Positions 36,145 to 54,620 of a stretch of DNA of 64,000 bases are shown here, in pieces; positions within the stretch are counted from its first letter, which is position 1, and each line of letters opens with the position of its first letter. The notes under the pieces are model-generated. The model saw only the letters and a program-made list of their open reading frames with translations. It was not told the origin of the DNA and did no database searches. The position numbers and the translations under genes are program-made. The DNA is from Escherichia phage 4MG: sequence record NC_022968.1; one strand, 5' to 3'.

Positions 36145-37827
36145 TTACAGTTGAGCGGCTGCTCGTTCACGAATCGTTGTCAGGTCTTCATCGACAATCA
36201 GTTTGCCGTTGTAGAACACACGACGCAGTTCGTTATCGTCAGACTGTACATCTTCAAGCTGACAATTGTCAATCAGTTCTAGCTGACCAAACATATTGCG
36301 AACAACCTTCAGGAAACCTTTTGCAGACTTCTTACCGAGGTCAGTCTTAGGTTCTTTGACAACCATGATCTGCTGACCATCAATAACCGCACCAGTTGCC
36401 TTCACAGCCATACCCAGTGAATCGCGGGTTGTGTACTGGGTAGTAAAGGAACCAACACCGTACACGATATTGCTGGATGCAAAGCCTTTATCTTTCAGAC
36501 GTTCAAAGATGTCTTTTGCACGAGCAACAGTGATAGAGTCACCGTAGATCAGGCCAACATGACTATCCAGAACTTTGTAACCCTTGGAGTTAACTTCACC
36601 ACCAAAGATTTCCCACAGACACTGGATTGCACCTTTGACTTCATGGTCTTGCAGATCGGAAGGCTCAAGATCAAGGTAATCCGTATCTTCATCGAATTCG
36701 ATGTTGTAATACTTACCTTTGACTGATACAACTTCACCTTTCTCGCTTTCCCATGCTGCGTCTTTGGCTTCAGACAGCGTTTCGAAATCACCAATATAAC
36801 GATACCCCGCAATGATATGTTCCGGAATGCCTGAATCAGGACGGAACACAACACGACCGTCACGAGCCATGATTTCTTCTTTCAGAATCAGTGCTGCACG
36901 GGTAATAATCGCCCAGAAGTCATAGCTGTCTGCTACGTAGGAAACAAAACCTTTCGGGAAAATTTCCGTGATGTAGCGTTTCAGGAATTCAACTTCAGCC
37001 AGGAAACGCAGTTCATCCAGGGACAAATCAGGATTTTCAGTTTTCAGGCGACCGACGATAAAGCCAATGTTAGTTGTTGCAACACTGTGTTCTGATGCAG
37101 GAATAGAACCAGCAACGAACTTACCTTTCATGTTGTAATAACGGTTCGCATACAGAATCGCAGGAATGGTATCTGTACCCATTGAGTTGATCAGTTGACC
37201 AAACTCACTCTGTGCCGCGTCGTGAGTACCAGATTCACCGCGATAAGCGAAGCAGTGGTTCTGGAACGGAACATGCAGGTTGTTATCACAAGTTTCGGCA
37301 GCGTATGCTTCAGACAGTTTGCGATACTGCCAGAAGGTAGTTGCAGTTGTGATGGTTTTCCATGTCTCTGCGGAGATCACGCTTTCCAGGAAGTTCGGCA
37401 ACCAGTAAAAATCAGGGTGCGTGTTCTGAATGGTGAACAGCGGAACCTGTACCGGGGACAGAGTGCCTTCAGGAATCGAACGGATTTCCAGTGGCAGGTA
37501 ACCAAGGTCATGCAGCTTTTCAAAGCCCCAGGTTTCAACCATGTCCGGGCCGATGCTCAGTTCACAAATTTCTTTGTACTGTGCGATAGCCGCTTTCTTT
37601 TTCATTTTGAAAAAGTTTTCGTTGAACAGGTCGATCAGGAACCATTTGATGAAACCTTGCAAGCCAGCCATCATCACACGCTGATCGTTATCAGCGAAGT
37701 GAATGAAGTGCTTTGCATTGCGTGGTGTCATGTTGTCCTGAACAATTTCAGAACGTCGGTCATACATGGAGATGTGTGAAGGTTTGTAAAAGTCAGCGAA
37801 TACGAGTGGGCTTTCTTTATGCAGCAT
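36145..37827 (-). CDS. nicotinamide phosphoribosyltransferase family protein (560 aa)
   Basis: NAMPT-like sequence features across ORF by recall; adjacent to PRS-like gene. Confidence 0.7.
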   Translation of the reverse strand: MLHKESPLVFADFYKPSHISMYDRRSEIVQDNMTPRNAKHFIHFADNDQRVMMAGLQGFIKWFLIDLFNENFFKMKKKAAIAQYKEICELSIGPDMVETWGFEKLHDLGYLPLEIRSIPEGTLSPVQVPLFTIQNTHPDFYWLPNFLESVISAETWKTITTATTFWQYRKLSEAYAAETCDNNLHVPFQNHCFAYRGESGTHDAAQSEFGQLINSMGTDTIPAILYANRYYNMKGKFVAGSIPASEHSVATTNIGFIVGRLKTENPDLSLDELRFLAEVEFLKRYITEIFPKGFVSYVADSYDFWAIITRAALILKEEIMARDGRVVFRPDSGIPEHIIAGYRYIGDFETLSEAKDAAWESEKGEVVSVKGKYYNIEFDEDTDYLDLEPSDLQDHEVKGAIQCLWEIFGGEVNSKGYKVLDSHVGLIYGDSITVARAKDIFERLKDKGFASSNIVYGVGSFTTQYTTRDSLGMAVKATGAVIDGQQIMVVKEPKTDLGKKSAKGFLKVVRNMFGQLELIDNCQLEDVQSDDNELRRVFYNGKLIVDEDLTTIRERAAAQL

Positions 37828-37880
37828 GTTTTGTTTCTCCTTTGTGTGTTTTGATGGGGTGATTCTACACCCCGTTTCGT

Positions 37881-38414
37881 TTAGATGTCAAGTGAAAAAT
37901 CTAAAGATTTAGATTCTTCTGTTACAACCGTTGTTTCTTTAACCAGACGACAGCCTTTCACCTTGATTTCTTTGGCTGGTGACCACTTAGTCGCACGGAT
38001 ATAGAATGTGTTTGCACGAATAACCATGAACCGGGCTACATCTTCAGGTGGTTCCTCGTTAATAAAAATCGCAACACTTTCGTATGCAGGCCACTTCATA
38101 GGGTTTTCATCGGTAACATCGGAATGTATACCATTACCGTTGTTAGTGCGACCCGGTGTAGGCCAGATAGTACAAGGTCGATAGCAGGCGTGGTCATCAG
38201 GAACCTGAATAACGTGATTTTCTAACCACGAGCAAATTTTTTCCAGGTCAAAATCATAATGGTCTTCTTTCAGGTCTTCAATATCTGTACGATATTCAGC
38301 CCCAACACCACACTCACCGATTTGCCCGGTAATATGAGCGCACATGTCACGCTCAAAGTTTCCTGCGTATGAGTCAGTATCGACAACAAAAATAAAACGA
38401 GTTGATTCAGTCAT
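37881..38414 (-). CDS. hypothetical protein (177 aa) between NAMPT-like and PRS-like genes
   Basis: ORF track; Cys/His-containing, no family recognised. Confidence 0.45.
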   Translation of the reverse strand: MTESTRFIFVVDTDSYAGNFERDMCAHITGQIGECGVGAEYRTDIEDLKEDHYDFDLEKICSWLENHVIQVPDDHACYRPCTIWPTPGRTNNGNGIHSDVTDENPMKWPAYESVAIFINEEPPEDVARFMVIRANTFYIRATKWSPAKEIKVKGCRLVKETTVVTEESKSLDFSLDI

Positions 38415-39214
38415 TAAAAATTCTCCGTCCAGTCATGGTATGCGTAGATTTCATCAACCCCGCCATCGAGGATGATTTGTTTCCCGAATGAGAAAATGCC
38501 GTGCGTAACGTAAAGGATAACACGTTTTGCACCATTCTCTTTCAGGGCTTTAGCCAGGGCGATGAAGGTACGACCACCATCACAGATATCATCGACGACA
38601 ACGCATTCGCGTCCTTCAACATCACCAAAGATTGCTGTCCCCGTAATTTCGTTTGTTTTCAGGTCACGAACCTTACCAGCTTCAACCAGAGGGAGTCGCA
38701 TACGGTCGGCAACCTTCTGTGCCTTCTTGCGAGCGCCTGCGTCTGGTGCAACAATGGTCACATCTTTCCCGGCAAGTTGATCATGGAATTCTGCAACAAG
38801 AATCTCTTGTCCACGAATCTGAACATTGTCCAGCAGTGCAGCAGAAACATCACTGTGTGGGTCATCAACAATCACTTTGTCGAAGCCAAGCGAGTTGACG
38901 AGGTTTGCAAAAACCTTGATAGATAGTGACTGTCCAGGTTGCATCACGCGATCCTGACGGGCATACGGGATGTATGGCAGGTGCAGGGTAAACTCAGCAT
39001 GGTTATGCAGCCCTTCAAGACGGGAACATGCATCCACCAACATAGCTAATGCCATGACATCGGTGGAGTTTTTGATTTTTGCAGTGATATCGACGAAACC
39101 AATACCGCCTTTTGGGGCATGTTTCAGATCAATCTCAACCTGTTCCTCACCACCCTTGAAGGTGAAGTGGTTAACAGGCACTTCCAGTTTGTTCAAGCGT
39201 AATTCAATACTCAT
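38414..39214 (-). CDS. ribose-phosphate pyrophosphokinase family protein (266 aa)
   Basis: PRPP-binding motif CVVVDDICDGGRT; shorter than typical bacterial Prs. Confidence 0.7.
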   Translation of the reverse strand: MSIELRLNKLEVPVNHFTFKGGEEQVEIDLKHAPKGGIGFVDITAKIKNSTDVMALAMLVDACSRLEGLHNHAEFTLHLPYIPYARQDRVMQPGQSLSIKVFANLVNSLGFDKVIVDDPHSDVSAALLDNVQIRGQEILVAEFHDQLAGKDVTIVAPDAGARKKAQKVADRMRLPLVEAGKVRDLKTNEITGTAIFGDVEGRECVVVDDICDGGRTFIALAKALKENGAKRVILYVTHGIFSFGKQIILDGGVDEIYAYHDWTENF

Positions 39215-41987: not shown

Positions 41988-42187
41988 AAATTCACAACAT
42001 AACCAAGGACAGGATTCATTTCATAATGGATTCAGGGGCTTACGGTTCAATTTCAAAGGTGGATGCCATGAAGTTTCTGTATGCTTCAAATATTCCTCAG
42101 GCAAAGCTTGACTCCCGTTCAGGAGAGTGTATTATTGACTCTATTACGAATACACAAGAACTGTGGGAGATATATCATGAAATTTAA
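41984..42187 (+). CDS. hypothetical protein (67 aa)
   Basis: ATGA overlap. Confidence 0.35.
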   Translation: MKIHNITKDRIHFIMDSGAYGSISKVDAMKFLYASNIPQAKLDSRSGECIIDSITNTQELWEIYHEI

Positions 42188-43097
42188 CGTAGATGATCTG
42201 GTTGCTAAAAAGCTGGTAACCAAAAAGACTTACACCGAAGGCCCGTTCGCGGGTCTGTCTGTACTGAAATATAAGAACAATGTGTTCTGGGATAACCTGT
42301 GGCACACAGATGCGCGTCTGCTTGAGTGCCGTGGCATGGTTGTTGATGCAGAGGACAACGTTGTTATCTGGCCTTTCACGAAGATTTTCAATCGCTTCGA
42401 GAACAACACTGATGTCCCACAGGACAAGTTGGTGTGCGTACCTCGTAAAGTCAATGGCTTTATGGCAGCAATGAGTGTTTACAATGGTGAAGTAATTGTG
42501 TCTACCACAGGAACACTTGATTCTGAGTTTGCACAAATGGCAAAAGATAAGATCACTGGTTCCATGCCTGAAGGGATGCTTGACTATTTCGTGAAGAATG
42601 CTGGACCTTGCACACTTATCTTTGAAATATGTGATGAGAGTGATCCCCACATTGTCGCAGAAGAAGCGGGTGCTTATCTGATTGGTTGCCGGGTCCACTT
42701 AAGTGGTGGTATGCTTCCAGAGTGGGACCTTGATAGAGTTGCAAATCGTTATGGTTGGAAACGTGCTGACTGGGACAACATGATCTTCAGCGATGTTGTT
42801 AAGGCTTCCAAGTCAGTTAATCATGAAGGTTTTGTTGTTCGTGATGTTGACACCAATGAGCTACTGCTGAAAATTAAGTCTCCACATTACCTGGCGAAGA
42901 AGTTCCTGATGCGTGGTAGCCAGAACAAGTGGGACCTGATTTGGGACAACCCGAAAGAAGCCAAAAAACGTATCGACGAAGAGTTCTACGAACTTCTTGA
43001 CTGGCTGCGCTGGGCTTACGAAAAAGATGAGTGGGCGGCTAAGGACTCTCAGTATCGTCGTATGATTATTGAAAAATATTTTGAGGATCGCAAATGA
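42177..43097 (+). CDS. ATP-dependent ligase-like nucleotidyltransferase, putative RNA ligase (306 aa)
   Basis: covalent nucleotidyltransferase motifs I KVNG, IV EGFVVR, V LLKIK; start ATG 42177 within ORF 42081..43097. Confidence 0.5.
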   Translation: MKFNVDDLVAKKLVTKKTYTEGPFAGLSVLKYKNNVFWDNLWHTDARLLECRGMVVDAEDNVVIWPFTKIFNRFENNTDVPQDKLVCVPRKVNGFMAAMSVYNGEVIVSTTGTLDSEFAQMAKDKITGSMPEGMLDYFVKNAGPCTLIFEICDESDPHIVAEEAGAYLIGCRVHLSGGMLPEWDLDRVANRYGWKRADWDNMIFSDVVKASKSVNHEGFVVRDVDTNELLLKIKSPHYLAKKFLMRGSQNKWDLIWDNPKEAKKRIDEEFYELLDWLRWAYEKDEWAAKDSQYRRMIIEKYFEDRK

Positions 43098-43330
43098 CAC
43101 TCATGTCAATCAAGAACAAACTTGACCGGGCTGTTTCCATAATTACCAGACTTATCATTGGGTTATCTGTGTTTATCTTCTTATTTGCACTGATAATCTT
43201 TGTGAATTGGGTTATCGAAACTCTGGGTGGTAAAGTAATATTCGGTGGAATTCTGCTCATCATTGCGGTGATTGGCTGTTATGGTGTTGGATGTTCCATC
43301 TACCCACACAAAGAAAAGGGTGAAAAATGA
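43094..43330 (+). CDS. small membrane protein (78 aa)
   Basis: two hydrophobic helices. Confidence 0.4.
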   Translation: MTLMSIKNKLDRAVSIITRLIIGLSVFIFLFALIIFVNWVIETLGGKVIFGGILLIIAVIGCYGVGCSIYPHKEKGEK

Positions 43331-43671
43331 TCATCTGGCTTGATGACTTGAGAGACCCAAAAGACTACGGGTATCCTGATGCCTTGTGGTTCAAGACCTC
43401 TCAGAAGTTTATGGATTTTCTTGATAATCGGTCAAAGTTCTATCGTTATGTCACAGAGTGGCATTTTGATAATGACCTAGGTGAAGATTCAGAAAAGGAG
43501 GGCTATGACTGCCTACTGGCCTTGGAAGAGAAGCTTGTGTATGGGAAACTTCCTGTGCATGATGCTAAACTCTATGTCCATACGTCTAACCCTTCTGCGG
43601 CACAAAAGTTCATGCTTGCAAAAGAGAGCTTCTTGAAGTATCGTATCACGATCTTAAGAAACAATTACTGA
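43327..43671 (+). CDS. hypothetical protein (114 aa)
   Basis: ORF track, ATGA overlap. Confidence 0.4.
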   Translation: MIIWLDDLRDPKDYGYPDALWFKTSQKFMDFLDNRSKFYRYVTEWHFDNDLGEDSEKEGYDCLLALEEKLVYGKLPVHDAKLYVHTSNPSAAQKFMLAKESFLKYRITILRNNY

Positions 43672-43680
43672 GGAGAAGAG

Positions 43681-44088
43681 ATGGAAAAGACTCTGATCAT
43701 CCTGCGTGGTGTGTCTGGTGCTGGTAAGTCTACAGTAGCAGATATGCTGGCAGAGGATTTGTGGCCTGTCTATGAAGCAGATAAATTCCACTACACAGAA
43801 GATGGCGTGTACGACTGGAAACCTGAAAACATGCAGGCTGCACACGCATGGTGTCAGTCAGAGGTCAAAGATATGATGGGGTGGAATATCAGCAGGATCA
43901 TCGTATCTAACACCTCTACCAGTGAAAAAGAACTGAAGCCGTATCTTGATCTCGCAGCGGAGAACGGGTATCGTGTCATCAGCTTGGTGGTAGAAAACCG
44001 TCATGGCAATGACTCCATTCACAGCGTTCCGCAGGAAACCCGCGATGCTCAAGAGCGTCGTCTGCGTAACTCATTGAAATTACAGTAA
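43681..44088 (+). CDS. P-loop kinase, polynucleotide-kinase-like (135 aa)
   Basis: Walker A GVSGAGKST at N-terminus; small AAA-kinase architecture. Confidence 0.55.
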   Translation: MEKTLIILRGVSGAGKSTVADMLAEDLWPVYEADKFHYTEDGVYDWKPENMQAAHAWCQSEVKDMMGWNISRIIVSNTSTSEKELKPYLDLAAENGYRVISLVVENRHGNDSIHSVPQETRDAQERRLRNSLKLQ

Positions 44089-44098
44089 GGGGAAACAA

Positions 44099-44875
44099 TT
44101 GAGGCGTTTAATTGTTATTAGTGGTGCAGGCTTCTCTGCTGAAAGCGGTGTTCGTACATTCCGTACTGATACAGACTCCGGAAAGGCTTTGTGGGATGAG
44201 TACGACCTTGAAGAGGTCTGTAATATCCATGCTTTCCGTGGTAATTTCTATCACAAAACGCACATGTTTTATAACAAGCGTCGTGTAGAACTGCAAACTG
44301 TGCATCCGAATGCTGCACATATGCGTGTTGCTGAGTGGTATAAAAACTACCCAAAACAGGTTGTTAATCTGACGACAAACGTAGATGACCTGCTGGAACG
44401 TGCTGGTGTTCCTAAGGAAGATACTCTGTATATCCACGGATATCTGAAAGAACTTCGGTATAAACTTCACGAAGATTCTGAAGAGCAGTTAGTTGACATT
44501 GGTTACAATGAAGTAGATCCTGATGAATTTCACTGGTGCAAACCAAATGTGGTCTTCTTTGGTGAGGCTGCTCCAGCATATAACGACCTATACTCAACCC
44601 TAGATAGCCTGACATCTGAAGACATGGTGATTGTTGTTGGATGCTCAAACACAGTTATCAACTTCAACTGGGAGCTTTTCCCAGCATCAAGGATGGGTAC
44701 TAAGATTGTTGTGGTTAACCCTAATGTTCGCTACGATGAACAGTTGATGTACGAAGACGCTGGTGTTGTTGTATACCGAACTGGTGCTGTAGATGCGTTC
44801 AGCAACCCTGGTCTCATCAAAATGGTTGAGGATCACCTTGAAGGTAAAACCTCATTGCAGAAGAAGGAGAAATAA
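44099..44875 (+). CDS. Sir2-family (sirtuin-like) NAD-binding protein (258 aa)
   Basis: motifs GAGFSAESGVRTFR, TTNVDDL, YIHG, VVFFGE; canonical Zn-binding Cys pairs not evident; TTG start. Confidence 0.6.
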   Translation: MRRLIVISGAGFSAESGVRTFRTDTDSGKALWDEYDLEEVCNIHAFRGNFYHKTHMFYNKRRVELQTVHPNAAHMRVAEWYKNYPKQVVNLTTNVDDLLERAGVPKEDTLYIHGYLKELRYKLHEDSEEQLVDIGYNEVDPDEFHWCKPNVVFFGEAAPAYNDLYSTLDSLTSEDMVIVVGCSNTVINFNWELFPASRMGTKIVVVNPNVRYDEQLMYEDAGVVVYRTGAVDAFSNPGLIKMVEDHLEGKTSLQKKEK

Positions 44876-49908: not shown

Positions 49909-50415
49909 ATGAGAGTAACTGATCAGCATGTTTTCTTCTTCACTTATCGTGATATGTTCAGCAACCACTTTCGACAGATAATTCCTATTCGTTGTGGTGG
50001 CTATGAGTTCTTCACGGTGGAGCACTTTATGATGTTCCAAAAAGCAATGCTCTTTGATGACAAAGAGATTGCTGCACGTATTGCCACAGTTGATAATCCA
50101 AACGAGGCAAAAGCGCTGGGTCGTAAAGTCAGGGACTTTGACAACAGTGTTTGGGAAGAAAACAGAATGGACATTGTAACAAACGGTCTTGTTCTGAAAA
50201 TGAAGGCTAACCGCTCTATTCTGGAGTCTGCACTGACTCACAGAGATGCTGGGCGGCGATTTGTAGAGGCATCCCCGTATGATGCAATCTGGGGTGTAAA
50301 ACTGAATGAATATGATCCACGCATTGATGATCCTGCTAACTGGCAAGGTCTTAATCTTCTCGGTGAGTGCTGGGAAAGAGCAATTGATGTTGTGATCGCA
50401 GCTTCGTGGAGGTGA
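49909..50415 (+). CDS. NADAR-domain protein (YbiA-like, DUF1768) (168 aa)
   Basis: N-terminal FFFTYRDMFSNHF, EHFMMFQKAML, later WGVKLNEY block characteristic of YbiA/NADAR family by recall. Confidence 0.6.
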   Translation: MRVTDQHVFFFTYRDMFSNHFRQIIPIRCGGYEFFTVEHFMMFQKAMLFDDKEIAARIATVDNPNEAKALGRKVRDFDNSVWEENRMDIVTNGLVLKMKANRSILESALTHRDAGRRFVEASPYDAIWGVKLNEYDPRIDDPANWQGLNLLGECWERAIDVVIAASWR

Positions 50416-50416
50416 G

Positions 50417-50854
50417 TTGAAATTAGAGATTGAACTTGTTCCAAAAACAGCTTGGTTTACTAACTTACGCTCTCACCTCACTAAATCCCAATGGGATGTC
50501 GTAAGAAAGAAATGCTATGCCAAAGCCAATTACAGATGTGAGATTTGTGGTGGTAAAGGGAATAAGCACCCTGTTGAGTGTCACGAAATCTGGGACTTTG
50601 GTAATGGTAAGATCACGCTGAAAGGTCTTATCGCGCTCTGCCCGTCATGTCACGAAGTAAAACATATCGGCCTTGCTGGTATTCGTGGAAGAGGAGAGAT
50701 TGCCCTTCGTCACTTCATGAGGGTCAACAATGTCTCCCGACAGGTTGCAGAGAAATACGTGAGCGAGGCATTTGCCTTGTATCATGAACGGAGTAAGCGA
50801 GAGAAATGGGAACTGGATGTCCGGTATTTGGACGAGTATTTGAGTAACGATTGA
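50417..50854 (+). CDS. HNH-like zinc-finger nuclease (145 aa)
   Basis: TTG start after RBS GGAGG; CEICGG...ECHEIWDF...CPSCHEVKH. Confidence 0.45.
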   Translation: MKLEIELVPKTAWFTNLRSHLTKSQWDVVRKKCYAKANYRCEICGGKGNKHPVECHEIWDFGNGKITLKGLIALCPSCHEVKHIGLAGIRGRGEIALRHFMRVNNVSRQVAEKYVSEAFALYHERSKREKWELDVRYLDEYLSND

Positions 50855-50862
50855 GAGGGCTA

Positions 50863-51984
50863 GTGGGATATCCGTATGATAAAGATTGGAAAAATAAAGT
50901 CACGAATGACTGTGTGATCGCTTTAGACCTTGACCAGACTTGCTTTGTGTCTGCTGCTGGCGCTGAGAAGCGCACAATTAAGGCAACACACATCGCCTCT
51001 GGCAGGGAAAAGATCTTCAAAAACAGAACAGAATTCTGGGGTTCCACCAAAAGGGTGGTGGGCGGTTGGCTAAAAGACCAAAACGCCAATATGGAAATTA
51101 AGGCAAAATCCGAGGGTCGTGAATTCACACCTTGGGGACGCGATGACTTCCTGATTGAGGATATTCAGACTCCGGAACCTGTTGAAAACTGTCTGCACAT
51201 CCTGAAAACAAAGATCAACGCGATCTTTGAGCACTTAGAGATGGACAGCCAGTATGGTATGGGCGTGTTGGGTGGGGAAAATAACTTCCGTCTACTACTG
51301 CCTGCACCAGAACGCTATAAGGGTAACCGTGAGGACACCCTACGTCCTAAACTGTTACAGGAAACGCGTGATTACGTCAAGAAGAAGTACAAGGCAAAGG
51401 TAATTGACGGAGTAGAGGCAGATGATTATCTTTCTGTCCTGATGAATACCGGGTGGGAGTTCTACCAGGCGACTGGCAAGTTCAACTACATGGTTGCATC
51501 CTTCGACAAAGACCAGAAAGGAACGCCGGGGCTTCTGTTCGACACCATGCGGGACAGTGAAGAGAGATCATGGAAACATCCTATCCCTATGGTCATTGAT
51601 GACTCTATGGGTGAGATTTGGATGGAAGGTAATAAGGTTAAGGGTTGGGGACGTAAGTTCTTCGGCTACCAGATGCTCTGTGGCGATAGCTCAGATAACA
51701 TCAAGCCTTATCAGTGCTTTGACATCTCCGGACGATTTGGTGATACCGCCGCATTCAACCTAATCGGTCATTTACAGACTGAAAAGGATATGTGGACAGC
51801 TATTGTTGACCAGTATAAGACCTGGTTCCCTCAGGGTGTGGAGTTTACATCGTGGGATGGAACACAGCGTAAAATGAGTGCTGGTCAGTGGGCTTCGATC
51901 ATCTTCCAGATGGTATACATGAAGCGCACAGCCAACGATCCAACAACTCTGGCAACAGAACTGCGTCGTGTGGGGGTTTTATGA
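50863..51984 (+). CDS. 5'-3' exonuclease / flap endonuclease (FEN family)
   Basis: motifs YKGNR, GVEADDYLSV, GDSSDNIKP; start codon uncertain (GTG 50863 or TTG 50851). Confidence 0.6.
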   Translation: MGYPYDKDWKNKVTNDCVIALDLDQTCFVSAAGAEKRTIKATHIASGREKIFKNRTEFWGSTKRVVGGWLKDQNANMEIKAKSEGREFTPWGRDDFLIEDIQTPEPVENCLHILKTKINAIFEHLEMDSQYGMGVLGGENNFRLLLPAPERYKGNREDTLRPKLLQETRDYVKKKYKAKVIDGVEADDYLSVLMNTGWEFYQATGKFNYMVASFDKDQKGTPGLLFDTMRDSEERSWKHPIPMVIDDSMGEIWMEGNKVKGWGRKFFGYQMLCGDSSDNIKPYQCFDISGRFGDTAAFNLIGHLQTEKDMWTAIVDQYKTWFPQGVEFTSWDGTQRKMSAGQWASIIFQMVYMKRTANDPTTLATELRRVGVL

Positions 51985-52286
51985 TTGATGGGATGATCAT
52001 GGAAGCAGTAATGAGGGACTCCAAGGCCCTCGCTGTTTCTTCTCTGAAGCCTAAGTTCATAGTTGGAACAGGTATTTGGCGTATGCTTGAGACAGACCAC
52101 GGTGACTACGTGGTCTTCACAGATGACTTTATTGACCCGGATAAGGCCTTCACGGTACTTCTTCTTGAAGATTGTGAGCTTGTTGAAGGTGAGAAGTTGC
52201 TGTTGTTGACAAGCGTTGCCTATGGAGACCTTGAATGCTCCCTTGTTCTTTTCCGTGAAAATGCTGTGGATGGGAATGATGAGTGA
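51981..52286 (+). CDS. hypothetical protein (101 aa)
   Basis: ATG 51981 overlapping upstream stop. Confidence 0.4.
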   Translation: MIDGMIMEAVMRDSKALAVSSLKPKFIVGTGIWRMLETDHGDYVVFTDDFIDPDKAFTVLLLEDCELVEGEKLLLLTSVAYGDLECSLVLFRENAVDGNDE

Positions 52287-52914
52287 TTTCCCATATGTAC
52301 TGATGTCTGTTGACCAGTCGCTATCCCATTGTGCTGTTGTTATCTGGCGCGATGGGGTGCCAATCTACAGGGAGATGATCAGGACAGGGTCTACAAAGAG
52401 TAAAGGGAAGCAAAGCCCGGATGTCTACTACTTTGACACTGTTTATGAGCAGATAGAGCACATCTGTAAGCGCATAAATGAACTCTGTGAAGAGTATTCA
52501 CCCGATGACTATGTGATGGAAGCACTAAGTCTTGGATCGATTGGTAGCGCAACAAGGGACCTTGCTGGACTGTTTTATTGTATTGCTCTCAGTCTGGATG
52601 ATTGCGGTAATCATTTTATTGAATACTTCAATATCCACACTGTTGCACCAACTTCTGTTAAGTCTTTTGCCCGTAGTCTGCTCCCGGAAGATGAGCAATG
52701 GGAAGTTAAGGAAAAGCTTGACAAAAAGAAGAATAAAATGGTATCATCCAAGTCCAAAGTTAAGATGGACAAAGCCATGATGGTTAAGGCTGTCAATTAC
52801 GACTGCCCTGGCTGGTTGGATGGTGTTACTCTTGCAGCAGGAAAGGCTGACTATGCAGATGCATATTTGATTGGGAAAAAGTTCTTGGAGGACCTATCCG
52901 CAGGAAAAGAGTAA
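52276..52914 (+). CDS. RuvC-like Holliday junction resolvase
   Basis: N-terminal LMSVDQSLSHCAVVIWRDG, central DYVMEAL, C-terminal ADYADAYLIG match RuvC catalytic blocks by recall; start approximate. Confidence 0.5.
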   Translation: MMSDFPYVLMSVDQSLSHCAVVIWRDGVPIYREMIRTGSTKSKGKQSPDVYYFDTVYEQIEHICKRINELCEEYSPDDYVMEALSLGSIGSATRDLAGLFYCIALSLDDCGNHFIEYFNIHTVAPTSVKSFARSLLPEDEQWEVKEKLDKKKNKMVSSKSKVKMDKAMMVKAVNYDCPGWLDGVTLAAGKADYADAYLIGKKFLEDLSAGKE

Positions 52915-52955
52915 AGAGTCCTGCATCTAAACCCAAGGCAAGGAAGAAACCTGTC

Positions 52956-53444
52956 GTGGTGCCATTGACGGCAGAACTTTGGGTTAAGGATGCAAGACAG
53001 ATAGCAGCATTCAGGGAGAAGTTAATTCTGGAACAAGGCGGTCTTGATCCTGTACTTGGTGAGCCACTTCGCAAACCATGTCTCGATCATGATCACTTCG
53101 ACGGAAAGTGTCGAGGAGTCCTTAGCCAGTGTGTGAATACGTTTGAAGGATATGTCCTGAAGGCTTGGATGAAGTACGTTTCTGCTTACACAGAGACCTC
53201 GTTGTCCACAGCGCTTAGAAATCTTGCTGACTACTTGGAACAAGATTTCAGTGGGTATCCTATTCATGCTGGCTACAAGGACGACATGCTGAAGTTTTTG
53301 AGAAGATGTACCAATGAGAAGATCATTGAAAGGGCTGAGTCGGATCTCGGCCTCATCATTCCGAAAGGAACTCAGAAGCATGACAGCATCACACTTTACC
53401 TTACGGAGTTTGTCAGACAGACGGAGGAAAGATTTGCTGAATAA
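52956..53444 (+). CDS. endonuclease VII-like recombination nuclease (162 aa)
   Basis: CLDHDHFDGKCRGVLSQCVN and YLE blocks resemble T4 endonuclease VII by recall; GTG start. Confidence 0.5.
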   Translation: MVPLTAELWVKDARQIAAFREKLILEQGGLDPVLGEPLRKPCLDHDHFDGKCRGVLSQCVNTFEGYVLKAWMKYVSAYTETSLSTALRNLADYLEQDFSGYPIHAGYKDDMLKFLRRCTNEKIIERAESDLGLIIPKGTQKHDSITLYLTEFVRQTEERFAE

Positions 53445-53645
53445 TTTGAGTAAGCCCCTGAAGTTCTATTACAAGAACTGGCGCGGGGAATACGGTTACC
53501 GTACCGTGGTGGACCCGGTGATGTGGTATGGGTCTACAGAGTTTCACAAAAAGCCTCAATGGATGATCAAGGCATATGATGTCGAGAAAGATGCCGTGCG
53601 AGACTTTGCTGTGAATGATATCGTTGAATTTATCCGAGAGGTGTA

Positions 53646-54620
53646 ATGCTGAGTGCAGAAGAAATCCTTGATTTAAAAGCTAAAGGCCTGAGTAACCGTG
53701 AAATTGCTCGTCGTTATCTGGGAAAAGAAAGCAAGGAATCCCACATCCGTCTTATTCTTAAGGCGCATGAGTATAACAAGGAAGCTGAGAGAGTGATCAG
53801 TGATGTTATTGAGCAGCATCCCGGTGCTAAGATCTTCCTCGGTGACGTAGAAGTATCACCAACACTGGCTTGGGTCTTTAACCGATTCAAGGCGTTTGTA
53901 ACACCTTCCCACGTAGAGCATGAACCTTACATGTACACATGGGCTGGTAAGTGGTTACATAACCCTGCGATCATCAGTCGCAAACTTCCTGACTACGAAA
54001 CGTTCAAAACAGATATCCACGACGACCGTGAACTGGTTGAAGAACTGTGGCATATTTTGGATGAGTGTGATATCTTCATCGCACACAACGCTCGCTTCGA
54101 CAAAGGTTGGGCTAACCAGCGTTTCGCGTTCCACGGAATGAAACCGCCATCTCCGTACATCGTGATCGATACGCTTGCAGAACTCAAGTCAGCATTCTCC
54201 TTGCCTTCTAACGCTCTGGAAGCTGCGTGTAATTACTTCCAACTGGACGCTCGTAAGCGCCACCACGAAGGTATCACGCTGTGGATTCGTTGTTTCCACG
54301 GAGAGATTGAAGCATTCGAAGAAATGGAATACTACAACATCGGGGATATCCCGACACTTGAAGGTATCTACTTGAAAGTCCGTCCTTTCATGAAGAAACA
54401 CCCTAACGTGACCCTGTACAATGATGAAGACGAAAACACGGTCCTGCGCTGTGTCCGTTGTAACTCTGATCAGGTTGTTGAGATGCCGGGTAAGGTCGGT
54501 ACTACGTACCTGTCTAAGTTCCAGGCATACCGTTGTGAGTGCTGCGGTTCTGTGATGCGTGACCGCCGTAACATCCGTACTAAGGAAGAAATGGCTAACA
54601 CGCTTGTGAATATCATTTAA
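53646..54620 (+). CDS. DnaQ-like 3'-5' exonuclease with N-terminal HTH and C-terminal zinc ribbon (324 aa)
   Basis: HTH LSNREIARRY; exonuclease motifs FLGDVEV, FIAHNARFD, YYNIGD; CxxC...CECC. Confidence 0.5.
   Translation: MLSAEEILDLKAKGLSNREIARRYLGKESKESHIRLILKAHEYNKEAERVISDVIEQHPGAKIFLGDVEVSPTLAWVFNRFKAFVTPSHVEHEPYMYTWAGKWLHNPAIISRKLPDYETFKTDIHDDRELVEELWHILDECDIFIAHNARFDKGWANQRFAFHGMKPPSPYIVIDTLAELKSAFSLPSNALEAACNYFQLDARKRHHEGITLWIRCFHGEIEAFEEMEYYNIGDIPTLEGIYLKVRPFMKKHPNVTLYNDEDENTVLRCVRCNSDQVVEMPGKVGTTYLSKFQAYRCECCGSVMRDRRNIRTKEEMANTLVNII

Follow-up and report, generated by a model that had tools for sequence, protein, structure and literature searches.

Adjacent RuvC-like and endonuclease VII-like genes in Escherichia phage 4MG form a conserved module and may encode complementary nucleases

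A gene for a RuvC-like nuclease and a gene for an endonuclease VII (EndoVII)-like nuclease lie side by side in the genome of Escherichia phage 4MG. Both were analysed in a 64,000-nucleotide stretch of this genome (record NC_022968.1; hereafter the window), which belongs taxonomically to Seunavirus (Vequintavirinae, rV5-like myoviruses). The genes are two plus-strand open reading frames (ORFs), here called ORF A and ORF B, and they occupy positions 52276-53444, exactly where an earlier reading of the bare sequence (the original prediction) had placed two adjacent nuclease genes. The pair is an old conserved module of the Vequintavirinae and of related marine and Aeromonas phages. We consider it somewhat better than an even bet, with a probability of about 0.55, that the two nucleases are complementary, one being a resolvase and the other a packaging debrancher, that neither is duplicated or repurposed, and that ORF B is made in two nested forms.

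ORF A (52276..52914, plus strand) encodes a protein of 212 amino acids. It matched PHROG 159, 'RuvC-like Holliday junction resolvase', at E 1.3e-33, and its predicted structure has an RNase H-like fold with the topology of RuvC; the best structural matches were junction resolvases, namely RuvC, the RuvC of phage bIL67, Ydc2 from yeast, MOC1 from chloroplasts and the poxvirus resolvase. With an E. coli RuvC reference sequence that had been verified against PDB 1HJR before alignment, hhalign paired D13, E82, K129, D192 and D195 of ORF A with D7, E66, K107, D138 and D141 of RuvC, and a multiple alignment that included shorter relatives placed K166 opposite RuvC K118. All six residues are invariant in 63 homologues. 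The codons of the acidic residues lie at 52312-14 (D13), 52519-21 (E82), 52849-51 (D192) and 52858-60 (D195) on the plus strand. An exhaustive profile search with ORF A retrieved 585 cluster representatives, the distant matches among them being proteins of about 160 amino acids, and 7 of the 10 that were tested passed the gathering score of the Pfam RuvC family (PF02075). ORF A is a long-branch member of the RuvC superfamily.

The protein is nevertheless far from the characterised members, being only 14-17% identical to bacterial RuvC (E. coli, 1HJR; T. thermophilus, 4LD0; PF02075) and to the RuvC of the lactococcal phage bIL67 (4KTW), which have about 160 amino acids and lack two insertions found in ORF A. 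The first insertion is a lysine-rich beta-hairpin encoded at 52678..52764 on the plus strand (residues ~135-163), for which the model gives strands E142-149 and E154-161 and hhalign leaves a gap; in the alignment with short relatives and E. coli RuvC it is missing from canonical RuvC and from the short phage RuvC-like proteins. The second lineage-specific insertion covers residues ~41-54. There is no obvious counterpart in ORF A to the aromatic wedge residue of E. coli RuvC, which we take to be F69.

ORF B, in the form annotated in phage 4MG, starts at a GTG codon 41 nucleotides downstream of ORF A and encodes 162 amino acids (52956..53444, plus strand); the product is 100% identical to the protein listed in GenBank as 'endonuclease VII' of phage 4MG. 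It matched PHROG 423, 'endonuclease VII', at E 1.1e-35. Against Pfam PF02945 the protein scored 22.4 bits, for a gathering score of 23.6, and covered only profile positions 38-81, the catalytic half; 50 of 51 members of its family matched PF02945 at E <= 0.01, the best at 1.5e-9. In a PDB profile search, for which the profile was built from family members only and the T4 sequence was excluded, the family matched T4 endonuclease VII at E 2.5e-14 over residues 9-152. The similarity to the T4 enzyme (gp49; PDB 1E7D/2QNC; PF02945 with the dimerisation domain PF09124) amounts to about 22% identity and spans the entire protein, so that the C-terminal helical domain for dimerisation is also covered. 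The catalytic residues D40, H41, H43, N62 and E65 of the T4 enzyme correspond to D44, H45, H47, N61 and E64 of ORF B, encoded in a block at 53085-53147 on the plus strand. Among 51 homologues, D44, H45, H47 and N61 are invariant and E64 is present in at least 90%. Both family assignments of the original prediction are thereby confirmed, and the alignment of catalytic residues that it had proposed as a check found every one of them kept in both proteins, neither of which belongs to an unrelated family.

The zinc site of the T4 enzyme presents a different picture. Its ligands C23, C26, C58 and C61 align to D31, a gap, S57 and V60 of ORF B, and none of these positions is kept as cysteine across the Vequintavirinae EndoVII family. 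In marine relatives (Vibrio phage 496E54-1 and Pseudoalteromonas phage H101) one or two zinc cysteines are kept, or there are extra cysteines in a loop. The alignment suggests that the zinc site may have been lost stepwise.

The ratio of nonsynonymous to synonymous substitution frequencies (dN/dS, omega) was calculated in comparison with four Seunavirus relatives and amounted to 0.04-0.13 for ORF A and 0.02-0.04 for the core of ORF B. Both genes are under strong purifying selection and neither is decaying; they are also full-length and syntenic, and nothing points to a repurposing of one of the two resolvases. Window DNA is 82-91% identical to that of other Seunavirus genomes (among them EC152, GAP31, FENT2 and PVP-SE1). 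At the amino-acid level, ORF B is 96% and ORF A 71% identical to the PVP-SE1 homologue, and the corresponding values for rV5 are 63% and 49%. We also observed that synonymous divergence (dS) between the same genome pairs is 3-4 times higher in the RuvC-like gene than in the EndoVII gene, with dS values of 1.33 and 0.39, respectively, in the comparison with FENT2. This gap may reflect either a mosaic exchange that affected the RuvC-like allele or an unusual nucleotide-level constraint on the EndoVII gene.

Translated searches over 50,697 phage records yielded relatives of ORF A in 293 records and relatives of ORF B in 771. Many of the ORF B matches come from podophages of about 43 kb and from T4-like phages, and both groups are absent among the ORF A matches listed. 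To our knowledge, the T4 genome has no RuvC-like gene. Within the window, each of the two families is represented by a single copy. The RuvC-like gene is followed on the same strand by an adjacent or overlapping EndoVII gene in Seunavirus, Mydovirus, Vequintavirus and Henunavirus. One gene separates the pair in Certrevirus and Septuagintavirus, and one or two genes do so in the Plateaulakevirus phages of Aeromonas; the pair is adjacent in Pseudoalteromonas phage H101 and in Vibrio phages of 137 kb, and it is on the same strand and adjacent or nearly so in Shandongvirus. Synteny is kept in the Vibrio and Aeromonas phages at only 29-32% identity to ORF B.

For a survey of uncultivated viruses, we selected 80 IMG/VR loci with a relative of ORF A, of which 28 were close (long-type) and 52 distant (short-type). 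An EndoVII gene was located just downstream at 20 of the close loci, while the other 8, one of them ending at a contig end, had none within 3 kb. No EndoVII gene was found within 3 kb of any of the 52 distant loci. Together with a survey of jumbo phages in which RuvC-like and EndoVII-like resolvases were 'nearly complementary' in distribution (PMC7824862), this bears out the premise of the original prediction that phages usually carry one resolvase. The pairing is a real exception to this rule, tied to an old clade and not peculiar to the 4MG genome. Newer GenBank records of relatives label both genes as resolvases; since both families are known and already annotated in relatives, the pairing is mildly unusual and not new. 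Literature searches for work on the pair in rV5-like phages, or on the odd start codon described below, gave annotation-level mentions only, and we came upon no study that treats the pair by experiment or by comparison.

Two unrelated structure-selective nucleases also coexist in cellular systems, such as RuvC and RuvX in Mycobacterium smegmatis, RuvC and the cryptic RusA in E. coli, and GEN1, MUS81-EME1 and SLX1-SLX4 in eukaryotes. The cellular genes are unlinked, whereas the phage genes are adjacent or overlapping. Where coexisting resolvases have been studied, their substrate ranges are complementary (PMC11466669); for the phage pair, complementarity is what we propose.

The start of ORF B is the second element of our reading. 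The frame of ORF B is open from position 52851, inside ORF A, and upstream of its first canonical start (GTG 52956) it encodes ...LGGPIRRKRVKSPASKPKARKKPVV. This extension contains no ATG, GTG or TTG start in the window. The upstream frame is likewise open in eight other Vequintavirinae genomes from four genera, with indels that keep the frame, and the encoded extension is conserved with the pattern GGxI(R/A)(R/K)KR... In the 45 nucleotides past the ORF A stop, the numbers of variable sites among six Seunavirus/Mydovirus genomes were 4, 6 and 10 at ORF B codon positions 1, 2 and 3, which is a bias towards the third position. A conserved open upstream EndoVII frame was also seen at loci L003, L004, L006-L009, L011, L018-L026, L040, L041 and L044. 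Furthermore, the extension is homologous to extensions that start with ATG, GTG or TTG in Certrevirus, Septuagintavirus, Aeromonas, Shewanella and Pseudoalteromonas phages and in one Vibrio phage, and it therefore belongs to the ORF B protein.

A candidate for the start of the extended protein is an ATC codon at 52896-98, which follows a Shine-Dalgarno-like GGAGG (52887-91) at a spacing of 4 nucleotides (52887..52898, plus strand), 16 nucleotides before the ORF A stop codon. ORF B probably begins at this upstream codon (52896), in which case the two genes would overlap by 19 nucleotides and there would be no 41-nucleotide gap between them. The proposed long form (52896..53444, plus strand) would have 182 amino acids and begin with a basic N-terminal extension (IRRKRVKSPASKPKARKKPVV...) of about 20 residues that is lacking in T4 endonuclease VII. 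All nine Vequintavirinae loci compared, the window included, have a GGAGG-like motif (GGGGG in Hena1), a 4-nucleotide spacer and an invariant ATC. The ATC is the first codon past an in-frame stop in Vibrio phage 496E54-1, and in Hena1 and locus L044 it forms a UAAUC arrangement, which corresponds to the classic UAAUG overlap of stop and start but has no AUG. At all 12 IMG/VR loci where the two genes are juxtaposed, the extension opens with an isoleucine codon (ATC, ATA or ATT) after a Shine-Dalgarno-like motif, although none was seen in L044, and a canonical start (ATG) further upstream is present only in L041. Where another gene intervenes (8 loci), the place of the isoleucine codon is taken by a canonical start. 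The invariant ATC after GGAGG suggests non-AUG, translationally coupled initiation. GenBank records place the start of the EndoVII coding sequence at ATC in PVP-SE1 and GAP31, at an adjacent ATT in rV5, and at GTG or TTG in 4MG, FENT2, EC152, BIS47 and Hena1, an inconsistency across the subfamily that could be corrected.

The short form would start at GTG 52956 or at the conserved GTG 52959, both located behind an invariant AGGAAG (52941-46). A parallel to such nested forms is offered by T4 gene 49, the start of which is hidden by an RNA hairpin. Folding of the RNA from 52850 to 52990 gave no significant sign of a hairpin that could hide the start of ORF B (z = -1.27). Two nested products of gene 49 were described by Barth et al. 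(1988), as cited in PMC2988021. The codons AUA, AUC and AUU initiate at about 1-2% of the level of AUG in E. coli (bioRxiv 10.1101/063800), and the AUU starts of E. coli infC and pcnB resemble the proposed start of ORF B in that a near-cognate AUH codon keeps translation low or regulated. They differ in that AUU alone has been experimentally confirmed as an AUH start in E. coli (bioRxiv 10.1101/063800), whereas the codon in ORF B is AUC, or AUA in relatives, and the evidence for it is comparative.

An additional signal was located within the lysine-rich insertion of ORF A, about 150 nucleotides 5' of the EndoVII start region. This is a sigma-70-like promoter match (TTGACA, 18 nucleotides, TATCAT; 52718..52747, plus strand) with a TG extension (TGnTATCAT), which agrees with the consensus at 11 of 12 positions. 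In 7 of 8 relatives, both hexamers are present at the same distance from each other, with spacers of differing sequence. The element could drive ORF B independently of ORF A, but coding constraint on ORF A may also explain its conservation.

Taken as a mechanism, our reading is that ORF A would most likely be a dimeric, Mg2+-dependent Holliday-junction resolvase in recombination-dependent replication and fork repair. ORF B would most likely be a debranching enzyme of broad specificity, freeing concatemers of junctions, Y-structures and heteroduplex loops before and during headful packaging. T4 endonuclease VII debranches DNA at packaging and is dispensable for recombination-dependent replication (PMC3016281); the packaging-linked debranching that the original prediction had put forward as an example of repurposing is thus the ordinary role of this enzyme. 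Two nested products of ORF B are probable, a long one from ATC 52896 and a short one from GTG 52956/52959. Since the long form would start within the 3'-terminal part of ORF A, its synthesis would be coupled to translation of ORF A, and a toxic nuclease would be held at a low level. We infer that both proteins are active enzymes that divide the labour, that the ATC is used as a start and that AUC initiation keeps the expression of ORF B low.

A more elaborate version of the proposal, which we regard as less likely than not, can be put forward tentatively. The pair may be a translationally hard-wired, two-tier module for junction processing, in which a toxic EndoVII of broad specificity and without zinc is dosed by a conserved AUC/AUA start (within a UAAUC overlap in some lineages) that needs ribosomes finishing the RuvC-like gene, and in which a second isoform from GTG has no basic arm. 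If true, the amount of EndoVII would be fixed at a small fraction of that of the RuvC-like resolvase, and the module would represent a natural, clade-wide use of an AUC initiator and a novel means of controlling how much of a dangerous nuclease is made.

Several observations weigh against complementary roles and an ATC-started long form. A Pfam search with ORF A and 63 family members gave no match even at E <= 1, a PDB profile search with the ORF A family gave no sequence match at E <= 10, and the hhalign comparison of ORF A with a RuvC alignment reached E 7.7e-4 at a probability of only 25%. As there are no sequence-only matches, the assignment depends on the predicted structure, hhalign and transitive profile matches, and RuvC membership would be carried mainly by the structure model and the transitive sequence links. 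ORF B is devoid of all four zinc ligands of T4 endonuclease VII, and since these are needed for the integrity of the T4 enzyme, activity of ORF B is not guaranteed. Both genes are located in the early/replication cluster, away from the packaging genes, so that nothing in the window ties ORF B specifically to packaging. Gene callers and several GenBank records choose the downstream GTG or TTG, and the proposed use of ATC as the start of ORF B is drawn from conservation only. Finally, our literature search turned up no biochemical or genetic work on the two proteins in any of the relatives.

The complete active sites and the purifying selection in both genes would also be expected if the two enzymes were redundant, each resolving the same branched intermediates. 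The phage would then cope if one enzyme were lost or were inhibited by host factors, defence systems or ionic conditions. Promiscuity is typical of phage resolvases (PMC3864405), so the substrate ranges may overlap, and the 8 of 28 close RuvC-like loci (one ending at a contig end) without EndoVII within 3 kb can be read in the same way. Yet pure redundancy is rarely stable over a divergence such as that to the Vibrio and Aeromonas phages, where ORF B relatives of 29-32% identity have kept synteny, and the fact that ORF A and ORF B evolve at very different rates suggests different constraints. We regard redundancy as rather unlikely. We give even less weight to the idea that one enzyme has a job other than resolution, with ORF B being a homing or site-specific endonuclease or a degrader of host DNA, or ORF A acting on another substrate. 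The missing zinc site of ORF B, the two lineage-specific insertions in ORF A and the clustering of HNH homing-type genes at the locus in several phages can all be read in its favour, as can the presence of the EndoVII catalytic motif in homing endonucleases (F-CphI) and in the restriction enzyme Hpy99I (PMC6083498). These proteins share with ORF B the D-H-H-R-N beta-beta-alpha-metal motif (PMC6083498), but in F-CphI and other DHHRN homing endonucleases and in Hpy99I the motif is C-terminal, the genes are associated with introns or methylases and there is no whole-length alignment to T4 endonuclease VII, whereas ORF B aligns over the whole length. Members of the resolvase clade are recognised by an N-terminal motif and by an alignment to T4 endonuclease VII from end to end (PMC6083498), and ORF B has both. 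Moreover, ORF B is found at a fixed syntenic position in every relative with an omega of 0.02-0.04, unlike patchy selfish homing genes, and the best structural matches of ORF A are all true junction resolvases. The specific case of ORF B as a homing endonuclease with an EndoVII motif was rejected on account of the N-terminal motif, the whole-length T4 alignment, the fixed synteny and the omega of 0.02-0.04.

The preservation of gene order and overlap over deep divergence raises the question of whether the proteins act as one machine, physically associated or in sequence, with one making the nick and the other the counter-nick at a ratio fixed by translational coupling. The eukaryotic SLX1-SLX4/MUS81-EME1 are such a nick and counter-nick pair, and in the juxtaposed genomes ORF B starts within the stop of ORF A or directly next to it (UAAUC in Hena1 and L044; ATGA in phage H101). 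Against this, Certrevirus, Septuagintavirus and Plateaulakevirus have an intervening gene and a canonical ORF B start, so tight coupling is dispensable; in addition, T4 endonuclease VII and RuvC each act as homodimers, and there is no fused RuvC-EndoVII protein among about 180 homologues. A single machine is improbable in our view, slightly more so than a non-resolvase function. A fusion might also arise through programmed -1 frameshifting of ribosomes close to the ORF A terminus, which would explain why the upstream frame is open and has no start. In the window and in eight other Vequintavirinae, ORF B is indeed in the -1 frame of ORF A and open for 45-69 nucleotides before the ORF A stop, and the overlap in the window contains A-rich runs (GGG AAA AAG; GGA AAA GAG TAA). 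However, no slippery heptamer is conserved among the relatives, the phase differs in Vibrio phage 496E54-1, where a stop codon directly precedes the ATC, overlaps are as short as 3-8 nucleotides (3 in L044), there are no natural fusions among the roughly 180 homologues, and no significant RNA structure lies downstream (z = -1.27). The unconserved slippery site, the differing phase, the short overlaps and the lack of fused homologues largely refute a frameshift fusion, to which we assign very little probability.

The surrounding genes form a tightly packed, nuclease-rich, same-strand string for replication and nucleotide metabolism, which contains both nucleases. Its order is RNA ligase, Sir2-like protein, DNA ligase, NADAR, HNH nuclease (50417..50854) and flap exonuclease, followed by a small ORF, ORF A, ORF B, a further small ORF and a DnaQ-like exonuclease, and finally deoxynucleoside monophosphate (dNMP) kinase, nucleotidase, ThyX and ribonucleotide reductase. 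The 5'-3' (flap) exonuclease (50851..51984, plus strand; PHROG 107, E 2e-67) heads the part of the string that contains the pair and is syntenic in rV5, PVP-SE1, FENT2 and Vibrio and Aeromonas phages. The small conserved ORF that follows (51981..52286, plus strand; PHROG 7583, E 1e-50) has homologous coding sequences in FENT2 and PVP-SE1, and its stop overlaps the ATG ATG start of ORF A. On the 3' side of ORF B, beyond one small ORF, is the DnaQ-like 'DNA polymerase exonuclease subunit' (53646..54620, plus strand; PHROG 403, E 7e-111; Pfam RNase_T). The small ORF in between (53314-53646; PHROG 3715) overlaps the 3' end of the EndoVII gene and has a weak match to the WYL domain (E 9e-4).

HNH genes recur near the module at differing positions, at 50417-50854 in the window, 3480-3917 in L005, 2570-3352 in L004 and 472-1965 in L016. 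In Aeromonas phage 4L372XY, an HNH gene is inserted between the RuvC-like and EndoVII genes, and its GenBank note cites similarity to the HNH endonuclease of 4MG. Homing-type insertions may thus be particularly frequent at the RuvC-EndoVII locus, which would make it a hot spot. In the phiKMV-like podophage vB_PaeP_PAO1_1-15pyo of Pseudomonas, the EndoVII gene directly adjoins a 'DNA polymerase exonuclease subunit' gene, an arrangement to which the window comes close, and the neighbourhood of EndoVII and the exonuclease may be older than that of RuvC and EndoVII. Elsewhere in the window, genes related to NAD at 36145-39214 (minus strand), 44099-44875 and 49909-50415 encode nicotinamide phosphoribosyltransferase, ribose-phosphate pyrophosphokinase, a Sir2-like protein and a NADAR-domain protein; this set may serve NAD+ salvage or counter-defence. 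An RNA ligase (PHROG 562) near a polynucleotide-kinase-like ATPase (PHROG 2071/505) at 42081-44088 resembles a tRNA-repair pair.

The paired genes are a natural exception to the rule of one resolvase per phage, and the exception is stable in a large group of therapeutic candidates (rV5, PVP-SE1, 4MG and phi92-like phages). The group also contains a whole clade of EndoVII enzymes without the zinc site that is thought to hold the T4 enzyme together. Phages with the pair lend themselves well to the question of why a virus would need two such enzymes, a debranching nuclease alongside a canonical junction resolvase.

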